From: Harriotta raleighana
Lineage: Eukaryota
Reading direction: 5' to 3'
DNA length: 64,000 bases
Assembly (NCBI GenBank): GCA_050575255.1
Contig: JBNZDD010013489.1
Location: 221,440 to 285,439, forward strand
Position numbers and translations under genes: made by a program. Below are positions 4,930-62,700 of the stretch, piece by piece. Numbering within the stretch: the stretch's first letter is position 1; every line of letters starts with the position of its first letter. Below the pieces are notes generated by a model. That model was not told where the DNA came from. It did not search any database and was given only the letters and a program-made list of their open reading frames with translations.

Positions 4930-5290
4930 CTTCCAAAGGGTTCAAATCCTACCTTTCGCACCGTCTCCCCTTTGCCTCGACAGACAGCTTCTGCTCCAGC
5001 ACTTTCCCCGTCCAGTGCGACATTCCTCAAGGCTCTGCCTTGTTCCTTAAGACGCTGGCCTTGACCCTCAAGGCTCTGTCCTTGGTCCTTAAGTCTCTGT
5101 TCTTGGGCTTCTTCAACATGTACACGTTCCTTCGTGGTTCCTTCATCCTCTGCGGACATGGGGGTCAACTTCCACATGACATGTGGATGTGGCTGACATC
5201 CAATTGTATCTCTCTGCCTCCACCCTTGACTTCAGGAGCACTGCTGTCCTGATAACATCATGTCCGTCAGACATCAAGTCCTGCCTGGGT
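4930..5290 (+). mobile_element. Degenerate L2-clade LINE reverse transcriptase fragment
   Basis: Translates with disruptions to FKSYLSHR...DIPQGSA / PQGSVLGP...FFNMYT...HG.NFH...ADIQLYLS, matching L2 RT motifs (PQGSVLGP, YADDTQLYLS). Confidence 0.75.
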
Positions 5291-5419
5291 GAAAGGTAAC
5301 TCACTCCAGTTGGGAACGTCAACGAGAGCGATTCAGTGAGGTGTCGAGGGCGCCCACAGATGATGGTGATGATGTTGTCAATCAAGTGCCTGAGGTGTGG
5401 AGGCCAGGACAGAAACCAA

Positions 5420-5800
5420 TCAGGAGGGCCTCAGACTTATTATGGGGTGTCCGGGTTACCAACCGGTCTATCCCCACCGCTCGGCGGGCTCCGGACTGAT
5501 CCATGTCCCTCGCCATCAGCTTCCCTGCCGTCCTCTACCACCCTTTGGAAATTCCATCCCACATTCCCTCCGCCCCGTCCCCTCCCGCCCTCCCTCACGG
5601 TCCTTCGAGACCCTCCTCTTCCACCAACAGCGCCTTGAGTCAGTCAGTCGGTCACCCTCCCCCCTTCCTCATCCCGACCCCCAGCTCGGGTCCATATCCC
5701 TGGCTGTCCATCCAGCCCAGGGCCGCGAAAAGTCTTCCTGAGGTAAAAGGGCGCGGTTGGTTTGAACGTCACGTGTTGTTGTTGTTGTTGTTGTTTGTTG
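5420..5800 (+). mobile_element. L2 LINE 3' end with (TTG)n tail abutting the CKAP2L promoter
   Basis: Same C-rich 3' region and (TTG)n terminus as the other L2 ends in the window (37290-37720, 54080-54400, 63590-63990). Confidence 0.6.
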
Positions 5801-6023: not shown

Positions 6024-9000
6024 ATGATGGCGGCGGCGGCACCTCAGAGCACGATTCGCAGCGCAGGTAAAGGCCGCGACCGGCCACCCTCTCACACTCC
6101 CCGCGGCTGTGACCTACCGGGGGTGGGGGGAGAGCCGACCCGACTCGACGGCCGGCGGGGCTTGTTGACAGCCGTCCCAGGCCAGCTCGCAGCAGCTCAG
6201 GCCCAGACATCCCCCCCCNCCGCCACCCCCCCCCCCCCCCCCCCGACGCCGCAGATTTACACTGACATTGTCTGGTCTGTAGCCCCCCCCCCCTCTTTCC
6301 TCCAGCCTCAAATAAAGCCGTAATAATTGGAATTTATAATAATAATACAATAATAATAATTTCTAACATGAATTATGAGACCCAGGGAATACTAGTGAGC
6401 GAGACCAGTCGGTAACAAACTGCTGCAGTTCACCTTACTTGGCGTGTAAGATCAACACACTGTTGATTGATAACGAGAATATAATTCCTTGTTGCACTTG
6501 TATTTATTATACTATTGCACTCGATACAGCGCGTCCTCAAGGCGCCTCAAAGCACTTCACACAAAATAAGACTGCAAAGTGGATTCGGATATGTTTTGTG
6601 GCTTGAAAAGCGGCAGCCAATTTAATATCTGATAATAATAATAATAATAATCCTGGCATTTGATCCAGCGGCTTCTCACGTCTTCTCGACTGTGTCTCAA
6701 AGCGCTTCACAGGATATACTGTAGAGTGAATTAACTGTATATTTGTGGGAGAAACGTCCCACGAGCCGTCCGAATAATTTGAGAGCCCAATTTTTATTAT
6801 TATTGTGTTTTTTTAAGGGATTTTTTAAGAAAGCAATTACCCGCCCAGAAAGCAATTACCCCCCCAATCGACTAACAACCAGGCTCCTACTTACTGCTAG
6901 GTGAACACAGGCTTGTGGAGTAAGGAAACATGCCCAACATTTTGCACGCTGGTCCCCTCGCTTGTGAGGAGAGCGCTCTAACCATTTCAACTGAAAAGGA
7001 CTCTGCAAAAGTTCCTGTGGGTACTGCTGTAGGTACAGATTGAAATGGTCCTGTGTTTTTATTTCCCCTTGGATTTCTTTGTGAAAACAGAACTGAGAAG
7101 ACAGCAGCTTGAAGAATATCTTGTGAGAAAAGGGAAATTGAAAAGCCAAGGCTCCAACCCCAGGTTTGTTTGCACAAATCCTCCTTGGGTCTAGGGTTGT
7201 AGCATGATAACTTTAATGCAATTGGCTCTCATTGTCAAGAATATAAATATTTGGCGCCTGTTTCTGTTTGTAAGCCGGTGCACATTTTCTAATGGGGTTT
7301 TGTTTTAGCCTCAATGGGTAGTTTTTTGATATATGATCCAGAAAGACAACCCAACAGTTTTAATTCTTCTATCTCACCGTCCCAACAGTTCTAGCATATA
7401 TATCCCTTGCTTAAATGTTTTATCTGTAGACCTAGAAGAAGTATTTCATTACCTGCAAACCAAGCAAGATTTTTATTGCCTTAATGCTTATTTATTAATT
7501 AACAAAAATATCCCATGGCAAGTTATTTGTATTCACGCAAAATCTCATTTTTTTAAAAAAAGTAACATCTGGATGTGTAATATATAGTAATAGTCTTTGC
7601 ATTTAATAAAGCGCTTTTCACGTCTTCTAGCGCTTCACAGAATATATTGTAAAGTGCTTTGACTTTACATTGGTGGGTGAAACATAGCAGCCAATTGTTC
7701 ACAGAAGTCCCAGGAACACTTGTAGATTAAAATGACCAATTAATTACTTTTTTTTCCCGAGGGATTATTATCAGTGGTGTAGAGTAAGAAAACTTGCCCA
7801 AGATTTTGTCCTGCCTGGAATTGAACCCAGGTCTCTTGCTTGCAAGGCAAGTGCTCTACAGGACTCCACTGAGCTACAGGACTCCACTGTAGTTCATGGC
7901 TCATAGATGCTAGACCGCGTGAAGGTTGCTACATAAACACAAGTTATTGTTGTAACTTCTATTTAAGTTTTTTTTTAATGGGGTCAGTTTCTTTTTAATG
8001 GGGTCGGTTTAATTTTTCTTCCTCCAGAATACAATAACTACATGGTCTGCTGAGTCTGAATTCCTGGTGTAGATTGTTGTATTTTTAAAAATTATTTTAA
8101 TTTCTAGAAGTAGTTGTGGCTTCAATTGGTATATTAAATTTAAATTACTGGAATAATAAAGTTTTGATTGTTAGTGTTGAAATGATATTGTTAACTCGAT
8201 GCCTCAAAGCAACACTTTATATTTAGTGTGATGGGTGGGAGCTGAGTTTTTTCCTTCTATCTGTAATGCCCTGAAGCTGCCATTTATGTGTTTCAATTTT
8301 ATTTCAGTTGTCTTTGAACTCAGACTTGCTGAGCTTAACGTAGATGGGAACTTTGATAAACCCATAGACCCCCGGCTGAAATTTCTCGCTTGGGGCGGGA
8401 GGGGTGGGTTGAAGTTCAGAGAAGCTAAAAGCCTCAAATCCACCTACTCTCTTAGACTCTTTTATACAGTTCTGTATAAAACTGTAATGTGCCACTTGGG
8501 AACATCATTGAGTCATGCAAAGCTCTATCATTCAGCATTTTTACTTGTAAAATTTTGACCCAATAAAGTGACTCTTGTATTTCACATTGCTTTTCTCTCG
8601 CCTGCTGTCTGCATACTAGGTGTTATTTGGCGGACAGGACTAATCACAAGATCCAGCCTCCAGCACCTCAACCCAAGGTTACATTGGTAAGCAAGGAGTT
8701 TTTTCAATGTTGTTAACTTATGCAAGAGATTAGTTTGGTACTGTACTTAAGTAGCCATTCATAACTTTGGTTAAATAGCTTGGTTAACTTTGGTGACATG
8801 ATGGGTGAGCCTGTTCCTGATAGACAAGTAAAGCTCCATCCCTCCCTCTCTCACCTCTTTCTTGTCTCAAGACCTTCCTGTTTGACGATGCTTTCAGTCA
8901 TCTTTCGGCTCCCATCCCAGCTAAGGCTCTTCGTCCTGAAGTGAAAGGCCTTGTACAAACGTCAATGTATATTAATATAGTTGATCTCACTGATGGGTTG

Positions 9001-12000
9001 AGTTTGTTTCATTATGACTGTTTATTTGCTGTTTAATTTTCTGATGAGCTGATCAGAACACAGCCTGAAATCTGACTATTTTGCACAAAATTTAAGGTAT
9101 TTTCTGTTGCCATTTCAGAAAGGTAACTTGAAGGGTGTTGTTGCCCCACAACCGAAAGTCAAAGTCACAACTAACCAATTAGCCACCAACCATGTCCGAC
9201 CTGCTGCCAGATCCCAGGCACATGGGAATACTGCAACCAGGAAAGCCCTTTCCAAAACTCTGTCAACCGATGAGCAAAAGCCTACAGTGATTGTTTTCCC
9301 TCAAGCAAGGAATACTGTTGCTCCCATCAAAACTGAGGACCATGCATTTCCAGCAGAGTCCAAGGAAACTCAGGCTGGTGCAGAGATTGGTGCCAACCAA
9401 TGCAAGCAGCCAGCAGAGTGCCAAAGTGACTCTAGCCTTGTGGCTGGCATGTCAACACATGCCAACAATCTTCACGGATCAAGCGGACAAGCTAAGCAAC
9501 GGAAAGGCACTACGCAAACTCTTGACCAAGGCAAACCAGGTGCTCGGTGCAGGAACAACACAGCGGCTTTCAAGCCTCCAAAACAACAAGCATTAAAAAT
9601 CGGCCTGGTCAGATTAAACCAAACCAGCAGCTGGCGACAGAAAGTCGGGGCGCACAGAGCGACCACTAGTGCAAATACAAACCGAGTCATTGGCACAGCC
9701 AGGGAAAATACGTACAAAGCCGTTATTACAACTAAAGTGCCCCCTAGGTCAAAGACAAATGGAACCAGCACTACAGCTAAAGTGCCCCTCAGGGCAAATA
9801 CAAGTAACAGTGGCATAGGTAAAGTGGCCTCTAATGCAAAAGCACACAGAGTCATTGGCCCAGCTAACAAGGCATCCAGTACAAGTCGTGCCATTGATGG
9901 GGACAGAGTGAACCCCAGAGCCAATAGAAATGAAGTGGAGGACACAGTTCCCAAACACAGCATCACAATCTCTGAGCGTGCCCAGCAGCCTGTAACTGGG
10001 GTATCCACTAATGTATCGAGGCAGACCATCGGAGGAACGAGCACTCGCCCATCTGCACAGGCCATGAGAACCAAGGCTGAAGCCTCAGCCATTTCCACTG
10101 GGAAACGACTGGTGAGAGAGCTGAAGCCTGTTGCAAGGCCTAATGTAAACTCAGCACGCAGGATAATAGGAACCCCAGCAACCAATGTAAAGAGAAGAAA
10201 TGGGCAAGCCAAGCCAACAGGAGCAGCAACAGAGCCTGTCAAAGTGCACCAAGGCCCTAGTACTGGGAGCAAGCTATCACAAGCACAGAACGACAGGAAG
10301 TAATACTTTTTAAATCTTTCATCAACTAAAATGGTTCTGTGTACATTATTGATTCTGTACATTATTATCAGCTTTTATCGATTTTCCCCAAACTGAAGTT
10401 GTTCACCATTGATGTTTTGCCAACAGGAAAAAACTTGAGGAGTGGTTAGCTACCAAGGGGAAGACTTACAAACGGCCGCCTATGCTAATCCCATTAAGAC
10501 AGGTTTCCACATCTGTGATTAAGAAACTTGAGGATTCCTTCTGGGAGGCCATCGAGGAGGAGGAAGAGCAGAGAGGTCTGGCCGATCAGGTGGACTGTAT
10601 GCTGGATAACTGTCTGAAGCTACTTGACCAGGTAAATAATAATATTATAATAATCATTGCATTTGATAGGGCGCCTTATCACTCCTTCAAGGAGTCTTGA
10701 AGCGTTTCACAGAGTATACTGTAAAGTAAATTGACTGTACATCTGGTGGACAAAATGCGGCAGCCAATTTGTGCACAGCAGTTTTCCACAAAAAGACATG
10801 GATTGAGCAACCAATTAATTTTAGTTAATTAAGTTAATATAGTTGGTTAGTCAGGATGTTCCTCCTATGATTGTCTATTGGACTCTACTGTCCCTCGTTA
10901 TGACTGAAATCTCTGGTTTGCTTTGGTTTGTGTCAGGGCCACCCCACTGAGGGGGTGTGGGCTGTGCTGGAGAACATTCCCAATGGGGAGAAGTTTGCTA
11001 AGTACTGGATCTGCCGAGCACGTCTGCTGGAGCTTACTGACACCATAGACGCTGTCATTGCCTTGTTTGAGCAGGCTGTCCACGCTGGTGCGCAGGTAAC
11101 TATACTCACAAGCCTGAACCACTGAAAGATTGCAAGTGTTTCATACCTGAGAGCCTCACTGTCCGGACAGGCACGCAGAAAATAGAAATGCTATCATGGA
11201 ATGGAAGGCCATAACTGCCTGACATTTTTTTTCCAGCCTGTGAACCAACTTCGATCTGCCCTGGTCGATGTCCTCATGAGAAACATAAACTCACAAGCAG
11301 CCAATACAGGTATGTTCATAGCCTCACAGTCTGTTATCCCCCCAGGTTTCTGCCCAGTGCGTTACAGAGAAATAAAGTGAGCTGTTTTCCTAGTGATTAT
11401 TAGATACAAATAGCCCAAATGCCCTAAAGTTTTGTTTAAAACCTGCAATCTCCTACCCCACACAATGTGTCTCCTGTTAGTGAAAACTTACAGCTGCATA
11501 TGGTTTATGGAGCAACAACGTATATTTATTTAGCCAGCAGCCTTCATGTAGATAAGATCTCGGAGTGCTTCACAGTACTCTGGATGGATGGCAAGCAAGG
11601 AGGCATATGTGAAGGATAGGTTTAAACAAACTTCTAGTCACAATTTTCCCAAGAGTAATGGGATGTGATTCTCTGTGTCTCTGTTCAGCCCTGGCTGCCC
11701 CTGCTTCGACAGAAGTTAGTGCACCTGAGCAGATCGCGCGAGTGGTAGGGGAGATGCCAGGTGGGAGTGAAGAGTTTGTGTCTGAGACACCACATACAGC
11801 AACACTGGGCATCCTGACCGGCAACAAAAGCCAGCATGGTTCCTGCATCATCAAGCACCGAGTCACTGCCACACCCCGGATTCAAAGGTAAGAGAATCCG
11901 AGGTTCAAACCCTCAATTGTCCAGCGTCTTGGGATAAATTATCCTTGCATTTGATACAATTCCTATCACGTCTTCCAGACGTTTCTCTTGCGCTTCACAC

Positions 12001-12469
12001 AATATACTGTAAAATTAATTAACAGGATATTGTGTGGGCTAAGCGCACAGCANTCACGTCTTCCAGACGTTTCTCTTGCGCTTCACACAATATACTGTAA
12101 AATTAATTAACAGGATATTGTGTGGGCTAAGCGCACAGCAGTGTGGGCTTAGCGCACAGCAGTGTGGCAGAAACTTATTGAGATTCAGTGAGCTGGTTCA
12201 GTGAGCAGGATCAGTTTCCCTTCACACGGAATGCTTGTCCTTACAGAGGGAAACAGAATCTGGCTACGAGTCAAACCGCTGGCCGGCAAAACCTGAAGTT
12301 CCTGACTCCTGTCCGTCGTTCTGTCCGAATCGAGCACTTGTCTACCTTGTACCCCATCGAGCTGCAAGAACATGATCCCTGTGTGACCTCCTTGGGTGAG
12401 CTGTTGGCAATGGAGGACGTGGCCATGTTTTTTTACAGAGAGAACGAGGCTTTGCAGGAAGAATTGTAA
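6024..12469 (+). CDS. CKAP2L: Cytoskeleton-associated protein 2-like (Radmis), 9 exons, 740 aa
   Basis: Exons 6024-6066, 7091-7163, 8620-8686, 9119-10299, 10427-10631, 10937-11095, 11237-11309, 11689-11887 and 12247-12469 (2223 nt, phases consistent). Motifs ELRRQQLEEYLVRKGKLK, KKLEEWLATKGKTYKRPPM, EKFAKYWICRARL and LKFLTPVRRSVRIE...LQEHD match the CKAP2/CKAP2L family; adjacency to IL1B favours CKAP2L. AATAAA at about 12823 and 12834. Confidence 0.9.
7594..7885 (-). mobile_element. Near full-length tRNA(Ala)-derived SINE in CKAP2L intron 2
   Basis: Reverse complement begins GGAGTCCTGTAGCTCAGTGG...CTTGCAAG...GGGTTCAATTCC, followed by the conserved core and tail. Confidence 0.8.
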
Positions 12470-13925: not shown

Positions 13926-14209
13926 TGGTGGGCAAAAGCCAATAAATTGCGCATGGCAGCGTCCCCACCAACAGTCATTGTAATGATGATGATAATAATT
14001 CAAATCATCCACCTCAACCGTCTCCCATAAACCACAAGTGTGCTTGTCTAATGGGTGTCCTTTCTCCCAAGGGACATGTTCCAAGGTTTGGGAGGGAAGA
14101 GAGAAAGGGGCGGGTGGGGGGGGGGGGGGGGNTCCCAAGGGACATGTTCCAAGGTTTGGGAGGGAAGAGAGAAAGGGGCGGGCGGGGGGGGGGGCGGTAA
14201 TGAGTGTAC

Positions 14210-14404
14210 TCTCGCGAGAGCAGGGACTGAAGACTCGTTGGGGGTTGCAATCTCGCGCGATTTTGTGTGTGTGTGTGTGCGTCGCGTAGTGTCGCGAGAT
14301 GTAAGACTGACGCCACGCGGGATTTAGCGGGCTGAAGTCTCGCGAGAGGTTGCCCGGGGAGGGCGGGCGGGAGGGAAGGAGAGGCGGCTGAGCTAAGATG
14401 GCGG
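14210..14404 (+). promoter_or_regulatory. PURB CpG-island promoter with four TCTCGCGAGA-type motifs and a YY1 motif over the start codon
   Basis: TCTCGCGAGA 14210-14219, TCTCGCGCGA 14251-14260, TGTCGCGAGA 14290-14299, TCTCGCGAGA 14338-14347; AAGATGGCGG 14395-14404. Confidence 0.7.
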
Positions 14405-15645
14405 AGGGCGACAGCGGGAGCGAGAGAGGCGGCGGCGGCGGCGGAGGAGGGAGCGGCGGGGGTGGAGGAGGGAGCGGCCTGTTGCTGCAGCAGCAACAGC
14501 AGCAGCAGGAGACCCAGGAGCTGGCCTCCAAGCGGGTGGACATCCAGAACAAGCGCTTCTACCTGGACGTCAAGCAGAACGCCAAGGGCCGCTTCATCAA
14601 GATCGCCGAGGTGGGGGCGGGCGGCAACAAGAGCCGCCTGACCCTGTCCATGGCGGTGGCCGCCGAGTTCCGCGACTACCTGGGCGACTTCATCGAGCAC
14701 TACGCGCAGCTAGGCCCGACCGACACCTCGGACTCGGCGGCGGGGGGAAGCGGCGGGATGAACTCGGACGAGCCGCGGAGGGCGCTGAAGAGCGAGTTCC
14801 TGGTGCGGGAGAACCGCAAGTACTACATGGACCTGAAGGAGAACCAGCGGGGCCGCTTCCTGCGCATCCGGCAGACGTTAAATCGAGGCCCAGGCTTAGG
14901 CGGCGCGCAAGGCCAGACCATCGCTCTGCCGGCCCAGGGGCTGATCGAGTTCAGGGACGCCCTGGCCAAACTGATCGACGACTACGGGGTGGACGAGGAG
15001 CCGTGCGGTCAGGCCGAGCTGCCCGAGGGCACGTCCATCACGGTGGACAGCAAGCGCTTCTTCTTCGACGTGGGCTCCAACAAGTACGGCGTGTTCATGC
15101 GGGTCAGCGAGGTCAAGCCGTCGTACAGGAACTCCATCACCGTCCCCTACAAGGCCTGGTCCAAGTTCGGCAGCGCCTTCAGCAAGTACGCCGAGGAGAT
15201 GAAGGAGATCCAGGTGAGGGGGTGAGGATGGCGGGGGGGGGGCTTGGTGATCTCTGCCCCTGATAATAATATATAATTATTAATTCAGGATTAATAAAAA
15301 ATAATGATAATGATTAATATTATTATTAATCATTAATAATTATTATTGGTGATGTTGATTATTAATTATATGTTGTTATTATTATTACCTCAGTGGTTAG
15401 AGCTTTACGAGCGTCGAGACCCGCGTTCGAATCCTGGCAGGTCAGAGCGAAATCTTGGGCAGGTTTCCTTACTCCACGCGCACGAGCGAGGGAGCGCAGG
15501 CCTGATAATAATCCGTACCAAAAAAAAAACACGATAAGAAAAATTGGGTCGTTTTCCATCCGTTGGGTCATTTTCCCTCCGCGGCTGTTCGTGTGGGGGA
15601 CGTTGCCACTGTACGTAATTGGCTGCCGCGTTTCGCCCACAAAAG

Positions 15646-15678
<33 letters not shown>

Positions 15679-17582
15679 GTTCGATTCACTTTACGGTATA
15701 TTTTGTGAAGCGTTTTTTGAGACGTCGAGAAGACGCAAGTATCAAAATATTGATATTAAATATTATAATATTAAAGTATTATTATTTGATGTGGAGCCTT
15801 TATGAGGTTCGGTTCCATGTTGTGTTCAACCCACCACATTCCATGAATTCAGTGAAGTGCATTGAGACGTCCTCCGGATCTGAAGGGCACTGTATGGAAA
15901 ATAATAGTCAGAATAGTCATCTTTGCATTAGATGTAGTGCTTCACCATGTCATCGAGAGGTCTCAAAGCGTTTCACAAAATATTCTGTAAAGTGAATTGA
16001 CTGTATATATGTGGGCGAAACGCGGCAGCCACAAACAGACGCGGATTGAGTTGACCAATTTATTATTGTGTGGTTTTTTTGAGGGGTTATTGTTATTAGG
16101 AGTAAGGAAACTTGCCCAAGGTATAGCCCTGCCTGGAATCGAACCCAGGTTTCTCGCTTGTAAGGTGAGTGCTACAGGACTCCGGTAATAGTAAGAATCA
16201 TCCTTAGATTTGATAAGAGAGTTTTATCACATCATCGATGCAGATGCTGGGTTGGAGTGTATCAAAAGCTGAAATAGTAAAAAAGCTGCCATTTGATGCA
16301 ACCGTATCATGTTGGATGTATACTAAAGTGTAGTGACTGTATTTTGTGGGGGAAAAGTAGAGCCAGTGTCCCGCAATGCCCCACAAACTGGCATGGAGGG
16401 AGTGACCAATTTTATTTGGGAAATTGTCAGCCAGGAGACCGGGAGAGAGAAATAATGCCGTGGGATTTTTATGATAACCTGAATTGGCTCAGGACAGAAC
16501 TGTAATGTCTAAAGACTGTATATTTGGTAAGGAATGAATAACAACTCTATATTTGTTAGTCAAACGTGATCCAAAATTAAATTTATACAAATGTACATTG
16601 ATATGGATCTTTTTCATGTGGGTAGGATTTGATTACGCTTAACATTTAATTAATCTTTAAATAAAGTTTTCTGATACGCCAAAGGGCTTTCTAATCCCTT
16701 GCCTTTGATATCATGTCAAAAGCGCTTCACAGGATGTAGTGTAAAGAGAATTGACTGCATTTTATGGGCGAAACACGGCGCATAGAGGTGTGCCACAAAT
16801 AGACGTGAAATAAGAAAACTTCTAATATTTCGCCCTGCTCGGGAATCAAACCCAGGTCCACTCACTTGCGAGGCGAGCGCTCCGACCACTGACCTACAGG
16901 ACTCGAGGGCAAAATTTCAAAAGGGCAAATAGCCCAAATAATCCTACCATGTTATAAACTACTGGTGTGACTGCACTTGAAATACCATGTGTAGTTCTGG
17001 TCAGCTCCGCATGAACAGGATATTGCAGCGAATAAGAGGATACAGAGGAGGTCAACCAAAATGATTGAGGGGGTGGAGGGATGGGAATACGAGAAGCCAT
17101 CAGGTAAACTGGCCATGTTCGTCCTGGAGAATAGATGGTTGAGGGGCGATTGTGATCTTGGTAAGACACTGAACGGATCATGATACGGTTTTTTATCTGG
17201 TCGGAGCAGAACCAGAGGACACAGCCTGCGATTGAAGGGAGATAAATTTAATATAAATCTGCTAATGAACTCCTTCAGTAAGCGAGTGATAAGCATATGA
17301 AACAGGCTGACTTGGTGGAAGCAGAAAATGTTGTTTGTTTCAAGAACAATTTAAATGGAGAATAATGTCTGGGTATACCATGGATAGTTTGGGACAGGAC
17401 AATGTGAAGCGACTGGCAGGATGGTGGAAGGTGAACAGGATGGACGTTGGGCTTCTTTCATCTAACAATTCTTCATTTATGTTCTTATCCAGGACAAACA
17501 CCGGGATAAAATGCTGTTCGATAGGCGAGGAGGGGGTGAAGGAACCGAGGATTCCGATGGAGAAGATGCGGATGACGATTGA
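14398..17582 (+). CDS. PURB: Transcriptional regulator Pur-beta, 2 coding exons, 301 aa
   Basis: Exon 1 (14398-15213) holds the three PUR repeats ([20 protein letters not shown]...) and ends at donor CAG|GTGAGG. Exon 2 (17493-17582) encodes [29 protein letters not shown], matching the PURB acidic C-terminus. The N-terminus [14 protein letters not shown] and the motif TSITVDSK are PURB-type. Confidence 0.88.
15918..16183 (-). mobile_element. tRNA-derived SINE in the PURB intron, inverted relative to the copy at about 15388-15760
   Basis: Tail, core and head consensus in minus orientation, ending CTACAGGACTCC. Confidence 0.8.
16905..17486 (+). mobile_element. CR1-clade LINE 3' portion (ORF2 C-terminus plus 3' tail) in the PURB intron
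   Basis: Degenerate translation [40 protein letters not shown]...[13 protein letters not shown]...FSKRVI matches the CR1 ORF2 C-terminus; it ends in a TATGTTCTT-type tail at the splice acceptor. Confidence 0.8.
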
Positions 17583-33546: not shown

Positions 33547-36500
33547 CTAAATAACATTCTCAAAGAGTTGCATTGATTTCATAATGTTTTCATCCTGTAA
33601 CAGATAGAGAGACAGAAAGAATGAGTGATTAGAAATGATAATCCTGGCTTGGCACCCAGCAGAATTTGAGGGAGGTAGAGGGGAAATGACCAAAGTACAA
33701 TAAAAATAATATAATAATCCTCGCATTAAAATTCCTTATCAAGTCATTGAAACATCTCAAAGTGCTTCACAGATATACTGTACAGTGAATTGCGTATTTT
33801 GTGGGTGAAATGCAGCAGCCAATTGTGCACAGCACAGCACTGTCCCACAAACACTCGTTGAATAAGTGACCAATCCATTTTTGGGGGTGGGCCTTGAGAT
33901 GGACCTTGAAAGAGATGATGGAGGGAGTGAGCAACACACAGGCTGAAAGTCAGACCAAAGTGGGGCTGTTAGGGCGGAGGACATGAAGCAGGCTCGTGCG
34001 TTTGAGGATGAGGCAGAGTTTAGATATAGATTCTGAGCAGCTCCTACCTTTTGGCATGTCTCCAGGAACTCATCAATGGTCACCACTCCATCTTGATTCC
34101 TGTCCATTTTCTGTGGGATGAAAATATCGGTTAAGTTTTCAGCACGGGCTGCAAGTACCGAGCAGTAAAGAGGATTCAAGCATTGCACTACCTGGAAGAA
34201 CTTTTCCACGTGTTCAATCGGATCATCTTCGTGCACAATGGGTTTTGTGTATCTACCCATCATATCATAGATAGATTTAATGATAGCCAACATTTCCTGC
34301 AAGCAGAACAAGACATCCATCTGCAACAACTTGCATTTATATAGCAAATAATAATAAATCTTTGCATTTGAGGTAGCGTTTTTCATATCTTCTAGATGTC
34401 TCAAAATGCTTCGCAGAACATACTGCAAAAGTGAATTGACGTATATATGTGGGTGAAACATGGCAGCCAATTGCGCACAGCAGTGTCCCACAAACAGTAG
34501 TGGATTGACCAACTCATTATATTTTTTTCCCGGGGGATTTTTATTATGCGTGTGGAGTAAGGAAAGTTTTGCCCTGTCGTGAATTGAACCCAGGTCTCCT
34601 GCTTGCAAGGCGAGTGTTCTAACCACCGAGCTACAGGACTCCACTTTTGTGTTAACGGTATTTTTTTCAAAGACTGAAAAGTATTCTTGAGAATTAGGGA
34701 TTTTACAATGGTTTGAATACTGACTGTACCTCCTTTGTGATGTAACCATCACTGTTGATATCATACAGGTTGAAGGCCCAGTTAAGCTTTTCATTTACAG
34801 TTCCACGTAGTAACAAAGACAGCCCGATGACAAAATCCTGCGGCAGACACAGATTTCTATCAGTTGTTTACATTAAAAGATTGAGATAATAATAATCATC
34901 CTTGTATTTAATAGAATGCCTTAACGTGCAGTCGAAAATTACTGTAAAGTTTAGTGACTGTGTATCATGTGGGTGAAACGTGACAGCCGATTGCACATAG
35001 TGGCATCCCACAAACAGCCATGGATTAAGAGTTGGAGAGTTAGTTCTACAATTCACACTTTGATCTATCGTTTCCACTTGTCTCTCACCTCAAACCGGAT
35101 TGCTCCTCTTTTGTCTGCATCAAATGCATTAAACAGGAAATGTGCATAAGTGGTAGCATCTAAACAAGAGAGCAAAGTGTTTGTTTATAACAGAAGGAAA
35201 TGTACAATAGAAATGCATATAAGGCGGAAGAAACAGACTTCATAACCAGCTGAAGAACGCTGTACCTATGTACTGTGTAAATAGGTATGGTCTTTAGATT
35301 ACCTATTTTAATATTCTCTTACCTCCTTGGGGAAAGAATTGTGAATAAATGGCTTTAAATGTTTCTTCATCCACCATTCCACTAGGGCACTCCTATAAAA
35401 ACAGATATATTTTGTCATGCGCTGTAAATCAGCCAATCATTAAATTAAAATCATGAAAAAAAATCACTACATTGATTTGAGGATCTGGTTAAAGTACAAG
35501 GGTGTGTGGAAGCTACAAACAGATCCTTTTAAATTAACAGCAACAACAAAATTATATTTATAGAGCGTCTTTCATGTCGGAAGGGCTCCAAATTTAAAAT
35601 GTTCAAACTTAAGGGGAGTTTTGATCGAACTATCCTTTGGTGGGTGGGTCGGTAGGACACAGGTTTAAGATAATTAGCAAAAAATTCAGAGGGGAGACCA
35701 GACCAGGAGCTTACAATAACTTACAATAAAGAAACTATTCAATCAAGACAATTTATTTCAAAAGGTTTTAGCTGCTGCCGATATAGGCTCTGGAATCAGC
35801 CACTTACATTAAGTGCTGATTAACAGTCTTCTCCACAGTATAATAAATACCAACATTAGTTGCAGGAAGATTGAGTTACTTGCGTACATTTTTGAAGCCC
35901 CTGTAAAGTGACTGAAGTTCTTTCTTGGTAAATTTGGTCTGTGCTTGTAGCTCCTCAAGCCCTTCTGGCTGGTGTCTCACAGTTGATAGCTCCAGATCAA
36001 TTTCACTGTTGTCTGTGAATGGAAGAACTATAACACTTAACACTGCATACTGTCTTATTGAACCAGACCACCATAAGACCACCCACAAATTTCATTGAGT
36101 AAGCTCAGTGCAGTGATTTTGTGTCAAAGTACTTTATCCAACTTGAAAGATTTTCCAATAACAATAATAAACCTTGCATTGGATATAGTGCTATATCACA
36201 TCCATAAAGTGCTTTACAGAATATATTGTAAAGTTGACTTGAGTTTTTTTGGAGAGAAATTCAGTAGCCAATTGCGCAAAGTCGTGCCCGACAAACAGTC
36301 ATGGATTGAGTGACCGAACAAAAAGGTATATATTTTTTGGAGGAATTATTACTCCCTGAAATCAATTGGCCAATCAATTTACAACCGGGTTCCTACTTAT
36401 TCAATTTCACATAGTATCTTAACACGTCTTCAAAACATCCCAGTGTTTCACAGAATATACTGTAAAGTGAATTGACTCTATAACCTCTTACTTGAGGATG

Positions 36501-53700: not shown

Positions 53701-56700
53701 GTGTTTTGTGGGCGAAAAGCGACGACCACAACAGTGTTTCAGAAACAGTTGTGATCAACCAAATTATTTTTTTGAAGAGATTATTACATTCCAAAAGTGA
53801 TACGCCAATTGACTTAACAACTGTGTTCTTATAGCTAGGCAAACACAGGTAAAATGTATATTGCATAAAGTCAGGGATCAAAGTGAAATACCTCCACATT
53901 AGAACCAATTCCTTTGAGAACGGCAAGGCTTTGTGTCAGATTCACCTGGAAACAGCAGACAGACAGTAAGATCATCTTTCTCATTAAAATCAGTAAGACG
54001 CTTGTTCCCAATTGTCCACTCTTCGCCCATGATAATCACATCAACAGGACTAAGTTAAGGTACAATAACCCCTTTCACTCTGCTCAGCGGCTCCAGCCTG
54101 TTTCACGTCCCCCCAGTTCCCCCCACCCCCGCCATCGATGGTTGTATCTTCAATCTCTCTGCTCCCCTATGCTCTGTAACTCTCTCCCACAGCGCCTTCG
54201 CCTCTTGCCCTCCCTCACCTCCATCAGGGCACATCTCAAGAACCTCCTCTTCGACCTTGTCTTGGGTCATTCACCGACCCCCCTGCCCGTCGCCCCCCGC
54301 ACCTCCCCACCCCACCGATCCCAACCCCCCAGCTCACATCCAAATCCCTGACTGATCAGCGCCTTGGGACGTCCTCCTGAATTGAGAAAGACAATGTTAA
54401 AAAAAGCAGCAACAGAAGTGATTTGAACACAGCGCCACCCTGTGGTAGATACTAAAGTATAAACTGCAAATGGAACCATTTGGCTGAGGATGTTTTGAGC
54501 TATCTCCTTCTGATAACCCTGGTCAGAAGAGCAGGGGAAATGTTTAGTCACACATACACATGTGCACACACACACGCACACGCACTCACACTCTCCATTA
54601 ACAAGGCACGACAGGGCTCAGCACTCACCACAAGCTGCTTCTGTTTCTTCTCTAAGTTTTTTAGACTCTGCATCTGGGCATTCAGACTGTTGTTAATGTT
54701 AGTATCGTTCTGAGAGGAGAAACAGGAACAAGAGAGACCGTGATCAGTTCAGTGCTGGGTCACTAGCAATGACAAACTTAGCCCTCTTGTCACCTGCAGT
54801 GAATTTTTTTTAACCAGTGAATGTAATCATTGTGTACAGTGTACAATTCTGGTCGCCACACTTCAGGAAGGATGTTAAGACATTGGAAAGGGTGCAGAGG
54901 AGATTTACTAGGATGGTACCAGGAATGAGGGTATGAAGAAAGGTCAGAGAGGCTAGGTTTATTCTCATTGGAACAGAGAAGGTTGCGAGGAGACCTAATA
55001 GAGGTTTTTAAGATCATGAGGGGATTCGACAGAGAAGATAAGGAAAAATGTTTCCACTGGTGGGCGTATCAGTGACTCATGGTCACAGATTTAAAATAGT
55101 TTCAAAAAGAAGCAGAGGGGAGGTGAGGAAAAATGTTTTTCACTCAGTGAGTTGTTCGGATCTGGAATGCATTGCCTGAAGAGGTGATGGAGGCCGATTC
55201 GATAACAACTTTTAAAAGGAAAGTAGACATTTATTTGTGGAGGACGGGTTTACGAGGTTATGGGGAGAAAGATGGAGAATGGGATTAAATTGTTCTTTTT
55301 AAAGAGTTGGCACAGACTCGATGGCCTCCTTTTGTGCCGTAAGACTCTATGATTGCTGAGTTAATACCAGCAATATTCTGCTGCCTGAACCATTCCTGCA
55401 ACTGTGCAGCCATGTGGTGGGTGAATATCCAGGACAGAGAGAGTGTCGTCAGTGCTCACCTGTCTGAGAGTGAGAATCTCTAGAGCTTTAATCACCGCCG
55501 CCAAGTTTTGGATCTCTAAATTCGATACCTACAAGAAAGCCACACGGGTTTACAACTAGAATATTAAGAATAATCCACGCATTTGTTATAGGGGCTTGTC
55601 ATACCTTTGAGATGTCTTAAGGCGCTTACGGGCTATACAGTAAAACCCAGTTTATCCGGCACCTACGGGATCTGGCCAGTGGAGATTAAACAGCTTTCCA
55701 ATTAAACTTTTTTTTAAACATATTTTTTAAATGAAAAATTATTTTAACACATAGCATATAAATAATAGACTAAATACAAACAGAATATTGTATTAATACT
55801 TTATTATTTATACTTAACTTCGCAATGGCAACCCCTCACCCGACAGAGGTAAAAAAAAAGGGACTTTTAAAAGGAACAGGAGCGAGTTTAGACCCAACTA
55901 GTGGCCAGCCGTGGGTACCTGCACCAGTACTCGCGTGCGTCAAGCGATTCATTAAATGTGTCATCACTATTTGGCGGATAACTTCTAGTTCGTCGAATCG
56001 GGACTTTTTTTGAGATGGTGGTTGAATAGGTTTTCCGATTCATCGATAAATGAGGTTTTACTGTACTGTAATGTGAATTAAATTTATTTTATAGGCGGGA
56101 AATGTGGCAGTAATGTCCCACAAACAGTCGTGGATTGAGTGACCACATTATTATATATTTATTAATATGTATTTTTGAAGGGATTATCACCCCCAGTAAA
56201 AGTGATTCGCCAATCCAGTAACAACCAGGTTTCGATTTACTGCTGGGAAAATAAGAGGATTGCGTGTGGAGTAAGTGGAGTAAGTTTATCCCCATTGTCT
56301 TCTCGCTTGCGAGCCGAGCGCACTAATCACTGAGCTACAGGACTCCGAGGCAGCCTGCAGGAACTGTTCTGTTCTGGCTTGTTCTCAAACCTCCTGCCCG
56401 CCCCCATATGAAGCATTGCTAAGTTTCCTACCTGATTGTCAATGTCTGTAATACCACTCTTCGCAAACTTCTTCAGGCCGTCCCTGCCAATGCTATTCAG
56501 CAAGATAATGCTGCTCAAGTTCACCTTCAGGCTTTTAAGTTTAGACTCAAATTCACCTGTGTACTGAGGTAGAGAGAGAGATGACACCACTTGCCCACAC
56601 ACACACACACACAAAGACAAACACACACTTACACACATATCCCATTCATTGCTTCTCTGTTCAAGAACGCAGTGTTTCTTCTAAACTAGCATTTGGACAT

Positions 56701-59700: not shown

Positions 59701-62700
59701 GGATCACAAGCCTAATAATCCCTCGAAGAAATAAACAAAATCAGTAAAAAATTGATCACTTCAATCTGCCACTGTTTGCATGGGGACGCTGCTGTGCGCA
59801 ATTGGCTGCTATGTTTCGCCCACAAAATATTTAGTCAATTCTCCACTTTACAGTATATTCTGTGAAGCGCTTTGAGACACAGTCTAGAAGACGTGAAAAT
59901 GCGCTATATGAAATGTAAGGAATATTGTCATTCTATATCTTACATCATATTAAGAAAGAGAGGAAACCCAAGTAAGGGCATGCGTTGGACTAGAGCTCTG
60001 ATCACAGACAATCAGAAATGCTCAGGAGGCGGGTGTGTTGGAGGGATGTGAGGTGGAGGACAAGCAGAATTATGGGGCTACCATTTACTTGCCCACGAAA
60101 CATGCAACATAACACGTAACAGGCTGCTCAGCGCATATCTCAATAAACCTCACATCATTTTGTGTACCTGTAGTAATCATACTGCTTCAGTTCCCCACCA
60201 AATGTTGAAATGCCATTGTCTAAAGTGACAAACTGTCCGCTGACCGATGGGAGAGAGTCCAACAGAGGGAGGGAATTTGTGATGTTGGAAATTTCTCTCT
60301 CGATGTTGTCCAGAATTGTGTTAGAATCTGCAAACAGACATACACTGATTGACTGAGGACAATATTCCCTCGTTGTGATATTCAGACACGGGCGGCTGGG
60401 GGTGGGGCTCAGTGCACTGTTAGCGAGGTCAGCTTCACAGCGGGAAAGTCAATGTTCCAAAGCTTCTCACACGGGAGGAGGAGAAGCTGGGCCTGGTATG
60501 GATTGGAATTTGATCTCAAGCACAACAAATTACATTTACACAGGGCAGGGAAACTGTGAGAAACTGAGGGAATAACAAGGGTGGATCCACTTTGTGATCC
60601 TTGACAGATCAACCCTGGGAATGGCTGATCATAATCTCGCTGGGAGCTCAACGGTCTGAGCTGTAACAGCCCAGTGAGGGCTCTCCTGGTTGGAGGAAGT
60701 GGGAATAACTTGCCTATTGTTTCATCTACTGTTGGGGAAGTCACTGCAAAATGCACCAGGAGTCATTTGTTTGCACTGTATTTAGAAATCATCTTGGGAC
60801 AAAATTGGGAGTGGATGGACAGATCACCCAGAGTCTAACAGAATGCTGGAACAGACTTGAGGGGCTGAATGGCCTCCTTCCTAAAGCCCTTTGGCTTTTC
60901 GACAATCTTTTCAAATCCCTTCAGCCCCCTCTCTTCATATTCACCTGACAGTAAAGGAACCAACTGTGTCGACACTTTTTGGTGTATTAAGTTGACCTTG
61001 CGCTTTCCCTGGGAGAGAAACAAACACAACAAGCTTCAGAGATTCAACCAACCTGCGAGTTTTCAGAACTTTTGCAGATCAGGATATGAGAAGATCAAAG
61101 AGATTTACCTCCTCAACAGCAAAGCTCAGATTGTTTTGAGCCAAATCCAGGATGCTGATGATCACAGGCGAGAAACTACCCAATATCTGTGGACAGTCAA
61201 AACACATTATCCACCCAGGCTTTCTCAACCTTCTTACACAAACACATCACAATATGATAATCAGGTGTTTACCAAGCGGTTTGCTTGGCTGAGCACTGGA
61301 CTGCTCCATGTCCGCAGCCCGGACCCAACCCTACCATTGGCTGTTGGGCCTTTAGTCTCTCTGACCCTCTGGAATGCCATCCAGGATTCCCTTCTCCTCG
61401 CCTCCTTCATGTCTTACCGTGCTATAGGAATCATTGAGCTGCAGATCGTTAACCAGCTTTGTATCACAGTCAACACAACTTGCATTCTTCAGCGTCTTGT
61501 TAATATCCAATCGCAAGTTGTTCAGATCACGCTCTATCTGCTCTAGGGAGGCCTTTGTGGAGTTCACAACGAGTAGATGGAGTTTGGAGGTTTGGATATC
61601 TGTTTGAACAGAATAAAGGGACTAACAACAACAACTCGTACTGACTACAAAGAGCAGTCACACCTCAATACAACTCTCACAGATTCACTCACAGGGACAG
61701 GAGGAGGCCATTCAGCTCCTCAAGCCTGTTCCGCCATTCTGATCTGTACGTCCCCGTATCCCTTTGATACCCTGACCTCACAAACAGCTACCACCTGTGG
61801 CCTTGAAAATTTCAAAATAGATCCTGCTGGTCTATGCAGTTTAGGGAAACGCCATTTCAGCGCCTTCATCCATTCGGTCCACACGACTGTTTGCCGCAAA
61901 CGAAATGTACAGTCACCACACTTGACAATATAATACGCGAAGCTCTTTGAGACGCCACCAAGATGTGGTGAAGCACTTTATCACAAGTGCGGGGGTTATT
62001 ATTATTCGTATTATTGGCCATCAGTGGAATCCAGTAGAACCACCCAAGGACCCGATCTGTCATTACTTTTAACGCAACGAGTCCTGGCTGTGGTATTTAA
62101 TGTATGGGTTTACAATTGCTGAACACTCGCTAACTGCCTAAAGGCTGAACATTCATTGTTTACCGGTAAGCAAGTATTAGGCAGCAAAAAGATGCTATGA
62201 ATATGATTTACCTTGTTGTCTGTCAGACACCAAATCCAGCGAATTAACAATAGGCTCTTGCAAACGCTCTAGCAGCTGTTGTCCAGCGATCTGATGAAAA
62301 TCTGCCAGAGATCAAGTCAGAGACGGAGGCTGAATTATTGGGACAATACTGTGCCCAAAATAGCCGACAAACACTTTTTACTCCCGGTTGTTAAGGCGGT
62401 CGATTGGCAGATCACCTTCTGGGGGATAATAACCCTCTCCCACCTCCCCAAAAGTAACAGTAGTTTGGTCACTCAATCCTGTTTGAGTGACCAAACTACA
62501 ACTGTTTGTGGGACACTACTGTATGCAATTGGCTGCATGTTTTACTCATAAAAACACGCAGTCACTAGAGTATATTCTGTGAAGCACTTTGAGACGTCCT
62601 CCCAACGTGAAAGGCGCTCTATAAATGTAATTTTGTCGTTGTTGGTTGGTGCCTCGAATACGTGAAAAAGGTGTTATATCAAATGCGAGGATTGTTATTA

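Follow-up and report, generated by a model that had tools for sequence, protein, structure and literature searches.

A predicted intron in a PURB gene of Harriotta raleighana with its 3' splice signals in a CR1-like LINE: a candidate intron gain by insertion

To our knowledge, mammalian PURB and PURG-A are intronless. In the 64-kb stretch of Harriotta raleighana DNA analysed here (hereafter the window), a PURB coding sequence appears to be interrupted just before its acidic tail, and the questions raised by this locus are whether the interruption is a genuine intron, whether it was gained, and whether the retrotransposon that abuts its acceptor created it. The original prediction, that a 2279-nt phase-0 GT-AG intron splits PURB between EIQ and the acidic tail, holds in its coordinates, and the parts of the gene that concern us are as follows.

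14398-15213, plus strand: PURB exon 1, coding part; 272 codons with the entire PurA domain, last residues EIQ
15214-15219, plus strand: splice donor GTGAGG, near the U1 consensus
17493-17582, plus strand: PURB exon 2, coding part; 29 codons with the acidic tail, then a stop at 17580-17582

The PurA domain of exon 1 was matched by Pfam PF04845 (E=2e-103), GC3 in this exon is 93%, and the closest named relatives of its product are shark proteins. In a tree of the spliced product (35 rows, with 34 named matches out of 120), the product clustered with PURB-like sequences from catshark, bamboo shark, and sevengill shark (support, 100/99); among these 34 named matches the shark PURB-like clade joined that of bony-vertebrate PURB with a support of only 88/85, whereas PURA of C. 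milii took another place in the tree. The C-terminal tail could be aligned with PURB but not with PURA. Upstream lies a CKAP2-like gene (6024-12469, plus strand; nine exons, 740 codons, open once spliced, with a CKAP2_C domain; the CKAP2L exon found no counterpart in the structure atlas), and downstream lie the 3' exons of a KCNIP gene (33550-35950, minus strand), for which calsenilin/KCNIP3 was the best match; H2A.Z-type motifs were looked for within the 64-kb window and none was found. In teleosts, CKAP2L adjoins PURB (PMC7144542). Based on the tree grouping, these CKAP2-like and KCNIP3 neighbours, and the teleost adjacency, the locus is very probably the PURB orthologue of a cartilaginous fish.

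The cartilaginous-fish PURB (14398-15213) combines a PURA-like core with a PURB-like tail, hence the name "Pur-alpha-like" for the catshark orthologue. A hake protein (P0010) is a similar mosaic and has a tree position between the clades; such mosaics could reflect gene conversion or the retention of an ancestral state. Two PURB-like copies that differ strongly from each other (P0006 and P0029) lie on different large contigs of the sevengill shark, both without the N-terminal extension and both with the tail lost a few residues past the intron position. Upstream of the CKAP2L promoter, a coding-like stretch at 4950-5510 had no Pfam match on the minus strand and is possibly a decayed repeat.

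The intron extends from 15214 to 17492, with GT at 15214 and AG at 17491-17492, and contains no N bases; the unspliced reading frame stops after EIQVRG. The sequence features of a U2 intron are present (GT donor, branch-point motif, pyrimidine tract, AG, and a preserved frame). Eleven of the first 12 residues of exon 2, and six of the last seven, are identical to those of catshark PURB (P0003), while the adjoining LINE piece has four in-frame stops and approximately 40% identity to its best relatives; since the tail matches that of the catshark beside a decayed LINE, exon 2 is, on this comparison, under selection. We consider that the intron is very probably both real and, judged from the sequence, spliced. 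It is very improbable that there is no functional intron, either because an unspliced insertion truncated the gene or because the assembly is wrong. The spliced product is predicted from protein conservation, a short transcript could end at an AATAAA at 15293, and artefacts of overlap occur in the window where there are N gaps, among them a 68-nt duplication at 14065-14194; however, exon 2 is open and conserved next to a LINE that is not, and the N-free intron has two canonical splice sites that are in phase.

Two minor observations concern this region. The AATAAA (15293-15298) lies 80 nt into the intron and could give rise to a short isoform that ends in EIQVRG and has no acidic tail. Sequence is also duplicated on either side of single N gaps at 14065-14194 and around 12053, probably as unmerged contig overlaps.

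The 3' end of the intron is occupied by a LINE, in the sense orientation.

16905-17489, plus strand: 3' end of a CR1-like LINE, decayed and 5' truncated; ORF2 C-terminus at about 16935-17312 with four in-frame stops, then the 3' UTR and a T-rich tail
17462-17466, plus strand: candidate branch-point motif CTAAC within the LINE 3' end; its A is approximately 27 nt before the acceptor
17470-17488, plus strand: pyrimidine tract, formed by the T-rich LINE tail; the AT that closes the tract also opens the right repeat described below

When translated with its stops as X, this piece had 1961 protein matches at E<=0.001. Six of the eight matches scanned have RVT_1, and four of those six also have Exo_endo_phos, which identifies the piece as LINE ORF2; the protein homology covers about 16935-17312 and the whole piece scored 105 bits against a profile, while a search for named proteins gave 0 of 236 candidates. 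The element is provisionally assigned to the CR1 clade from motifs typical of that clade and from the T-rich tail. A hairpin and an octamer microsatellite are described for the CR1 3' end (PMC4316615); the tail here is degenerate and T-rich, and a hairpin scored no better here than in shuffled sequences (z=-0.43).

The LINE tail ends approximately 5 nt or less from the acceptor, CTAAC is the sole branch-point motif in the last 90 nt of the intron, and no competing AG lies between 17440 and the acceptor. Because the LINE 3' end holds both CTAAC and the pyrimidine tract, with no rival AG, the present acceptor signals are, by sequence, LINE derived, whatever the origin of the intron. The original prediction had already recognized a sense CR1 3' end that reaches the acceptor and a T-rich tail that serves as the pyrimidine tract, and the ORF2 homology and tail found here bear this out; the LINE end also holds the branch-point motif, which it had missed. 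None of the 11 other annotated introns in the window ends in a LINE-ORF2 match, and only three LINE-ORF2 pieces were found in the 64 kb. Decayed 3' pieces of CR1-like type, their T-rich tails related to this one, also lie at 54830-55355, 41230-41450, and 2310-2380.

The remainder of the intron, 5' of the LINE, is composite.

15215-15385, no strand assigned: segment U1; 50 G-rich nt, then an AT-rich microsatellite of tandem repeats, with AATAAA at 15293
15386-15736, plus strand: SINE S1, from tRNA-like head to tail; matches other copies in the window and is inverted relative to S2
15737-15895, no strand assigned: AT-rich, unassigned DNA (15737-15846), then the short remnant of a repeat (15847-15895) that has one other copy, at 62574
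15896-16183, minus strand: SINE S2, tRNA head at 16124-16181
16184-16313, no strand assigned: segment U3, without LINE homology
16314-16449, minus strand: SINE S3, partial; matches other copies in the window
16450-16693, no strand assigned: segment U4, without LINE homology even after in silico removal of S4
16694-16904, minus strand: SINE S4, tRNA-Ala head at 16831-16902; abuts the 5' edge of the LINE piece

The four SINEs have 73 to 81% mean identity to other copies in the window, which is rich in tRNA-Ala-headed SINEs, and an Rfam search matched only tRNA-like SINE heads. SINEs headed by tRNA-Ala have been described for C. milii (PMC5499810), and their abundance here fits a holocephalan host. 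With four SINEs in 1.5 kb, 15386-16904 is approximately three times as dense in SINEs as the window on average, which has 52 segments over its 64 kb; SINE-free stretches of 585 nt, the length of the LINE piece, are ordinary in the window (671/1269 positions tiled). By the profile and copy tests, approximately 650 nt of the intron belongs to neither element type; U1, for example, lacks both LINE homology and a second copy in the window. This remainder could consist of elements that such tests do not recognize.

It had been suggested that the CR1 might continue into 16400-16690; the searches of the 5' segments found no LINE there. These comprised tblastn with 27 of 150 matches and a profile built from 79 of 150 matches. 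Against that profile, five LINE pieces of 130 to 251 nt that served as positive controls scored 25 to 78 bits; the best scores of the four non-SINE segments (U1 to U4) were -5.3 to -2.0 bits and did not leave the range of their shuffled nulls. Removal of S4 in silico at 25 trial junctions did not extend the LINE alignment at any of them, and the single Pfam match in the six frames of 15214-16904 (E=0.23) was taken as noise. Continuation of the LINE 5' of S4 was rejected on these negative tblastn, profile, and S4-removal results. LINE homology thus reaches its limit at about 16905-16935, and the LINE accounts for approximately 585 of the 2279 nt, about a quarter of the intron.

At the two ends of the intron is a short direct repeat.

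15208-15214, plus strand: left ATCCAGG copy, comprising the exon-end CAG and the G of the donor
17487-17493, plus strand: right ATCCAGG copy; it holds the acceptor AG (17491-17492), and its last G opens exon 2

Both copies are where the original prediction had placed them, but its reading of them as a duplication that flanks the LINE is not supported. The left copy is separated from the LINE by 1.7 kb that holds the four SINEs and approximately 650 nt of other DNA, and because the LINE is absent 5' of about 16905 the left repeat does not flank it; between the two copies, the intron is only partly LINE. A target duplication is expected directly beside its element, which is not the case for the ATCCAGG pair, and this speaks against the simple model.

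The repeat consists of six identical bases to the left of the junction and one to the right, a register that gives precise splicing, and at 7 nt it exceeds the junction repeats of all 11 other annotated introns in the window (1 to 4 nt), which speaks for an origin by insertion. Among acceptor-like YAG sites in the window, 3 of 216 read ATCCAG, a chance level of 1.4%. CAG/G is what splice sites generally have at this place, and the Q-D/E codons fix it as well; the LINE tail itself may supply the first two bases, AT, so that only one to three bases of the repeat are informative. The original prediction had likewise counted only about three extra bases as informative, and had noted that CR1 elements often leave no clear duplication. 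Duplications of comparable length are known from CR1: in the coelacanth, 13 of 16 CR1-containing insertions were reported with a target duplication, one of them of 7 nt (PMC4255032).

Two other candidate matches were examined and set aside. At the LINE's own 5' edge (16904-16913), the best candidate for a duplication matched the acceptor flank at 8 of 10 positions; it is one of three equally good matches in the intron, overlaps the end of a SINE, and might belong to the LINE coding region, so that it is at most weak evidence for a rival account. A 10-mer common to the intron start and the LINE at 17066 was equalled in 0 of 500 shuffles, but also in 11 of 207 real tiles, and was dismissed as a G-rich chance match.

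Human PURA is described as a single-exon, intronless gene (PMC7990775, PMC2992531), and pur-alpha, like pur-beta, is listed among the single-exon genes of the sea bass (PMC8207432). Because these relatives are intronless, a gain is favoured, and by parsimony the PURB intron is likely to have been gained, as had been proposed. Of the earlier account of a LINE that inserted and was later expanded by SINEs, the LINE-derived acceptor and the probable gain stand; the several hundred bases that are neither LINE nor SINE are left unexplained by it.

We favour, at a probability of about 0.45, a reading in which a staggered cut was filled by an insert that ended in a CR1 tail, and this insert became the intron. 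It can be envisaged that the cut fell in exonic ATCCAG/G and that the resulting target duplication supplied CAG/G for the donor and CAG for the acceptor; the first base of the insert would have provided the T of the GT donor, and the LINE end would have provided the branch point and the pyrimidine tract. Splicing of the insert would then have restored the mRNA exactly. The original insert would have been larger than today's 585-nt LINE piece: either it was already chimeric, with non-LINE sequence at its 5' end and its RNA copied through the CR1 tail, or later insertions of other kinds filled the 5' part, all of them 5' of the LINE. The four SINEs would be later arrivals. A chimeric insert is possible because LINEs of the stringent type copy RNAs whose 3' end is the same as their own (PMC3747384). 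The more specific proposition, that a CR1 LINE, or a chimeric RNA using a CR1 3' end, entered a coding exon of an intronless gene and was precisely spliced as an intron at once, is put forward tentatively. In a weighing that holds only to an order of magnitude, the coincidence of a probable gain, an abutting LINE tail, and a repeat longer than those of the control introns tips the balance slightly toward an insertion origin, against which it must be set that a survey of 3,325 genomes reports no Introner pattern in vertebrates (PMC9860276).

Taken jointly, the rival accounts in which an older intron had its acceptor captured later by a LINE are serious contenders that fall short of even odds. 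In the first, the intron was gained in cartilaginous fishes by some other route and the CR1 landed later, either across the acceptor or within a few bases upstream; such an insertion would have survived since its 3' end provides a branch point and a pyrimidine tract, and the repeat would be splice consensus plus LINE tail, its AT continuing the tail unit. This account directly explains why the LINE occupies only the 3' quarter of the intron beside some 650 nt of non-LINE DNA, and the partial match to the acceptor flank at the LINE 5' edge is weak evidence for it. However, it needs a sense LINE end to have arrived within approximately 5 nt of the AG, though LINE-ORF2 pieces are so few in the window, and it also requires the extra repeat bases; on its own we consider it unlikely.

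In the second, the intron dates to the jawed vertebrates or earlier; bony vertebrates and the paralogues would have lost it, this slowly evolving lineage would have retained it, and the LINE would be a later passenger. Of the vertebrates in one comparison, C. milii is reported to show the fewest changes in introns (PMC3964593), and the PURB described here retains PURA-like residues and is basal to bony-vertebrate PURB. A sharp fall in GC3 at the junction, from 30 of 30 codons before the intron (15124-15213) to 13 of 29 after it (17493-17579), would fit a long separation of the exons, but could merely mark the edge of a CpG island. Independent losses would be required in PURA and in bony-vertebrate PURB, and we regard an ancestral intron as rather improbable.

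Less probable still is that double-strand-break repair caught a genomic fragment ending in an old CR1 3' end and left the 7-nt repeat as its footprint. Short direct repeats at the splice sites of new introns are reported from Daphnia, Drosophila, and Aspergillus (PMC3020277), and capture would account for the non-LINE 5' part; nonetheless, it would need a fragment that stops precisely where the LINE tail does, an end point that reverse transcription predicts and DNA capture does not. An origin by tandem duplication of exon 2 is extremely unlikely, since the resemblance of the intron start to 17530-17543 (6/500 shuffles, 29/1362 tiles) is weak and exon 2 begins with GA, not GT.

The insertion reading can be compared with described cases of intron gain. 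Like the PURB intron, Introners obtain splice sites partly from a target-site duplication and leave mRNA length unchanged; unlike it, they are multi-copy and mostly bear DNA-transposon signatures (PMC9860276), whereas the PURB intron is single and old, ends in a LINE 3' end, and is only a quarter LINE. Intron 3 of notothenioid slc26a2 likewise interrupts the coding sequence of a vertebrate gene and is ascribed to the insertion of a transposon, NTE-1; its GT-AG lies within the direct and inverted repeats, and a further element lengthened it later (PMC12357937). That report describes inverted repeats, a 4-nt duplication, and the element at both intron ends, whereas in PURB only the 3' end matches the element, which is a retrotransposon. 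Repair-mediated gains share with PURB a short direct repeat over both splice sites, but their inserts are not described in the cited account as ending in a LINE tail (PMC3020277). Intron gain is also reported for mammalian domesticated genes (PMC3257199). Overall, the PURB intron resembles a transposon-created intron, but the element does not span it, and it is a candidate variant of that class.

Within the Pur family, PURG A and B have alternative C-termini, the downstream exon giving a different tail. PURB is similar here in that a Pur-family C-terminus is able to come from a downstream exon; it differs in that exon 2 encodes the normal orthologous tail, so that ancestral coding sequence has been interrupted. 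Among the top-ranked matches in the open-access literature, there was no report of a cartilaginous-fish PURB intron, nothing on Pur intron positions in invertebrates, and no title that concerned a vertebrate intron created by CR1.

Vertebrates seldom gain introns, the elephant-shark lineage least of all (PMC3964593), and the transposon-made introns cited here are mainly of DNA-transposon type (PMC9860276, PMC12357937). If the insertion reading is correct, a LINE-born intron in a conserved, otherwise intronless gene would add retrotransposition to the routes of intron gain, sense CR1 ends would be a general source of new introns in CR1-rich vertebrates, and a sense CR1 tail at an acceptor together with a junction repeat would be a signature searchable genome-wide. 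Even if a rival account is correct, a conserved gene has come to draw its 3' splice signals from a LINE end.

The PURB intron is also a possible phylogenetic marker for chimaeras or for all cartilaginous fishes. When read-through forms with EIQV as their end were sought in other species, 11 short protein matches came up; none exceeded 90% identity, and no cartilaginous fish was named among them. The bamboo shark protein has a Q-to-H change at the junction, which would weaken a donor there and gives a very weak hint that this species may be without the intron.
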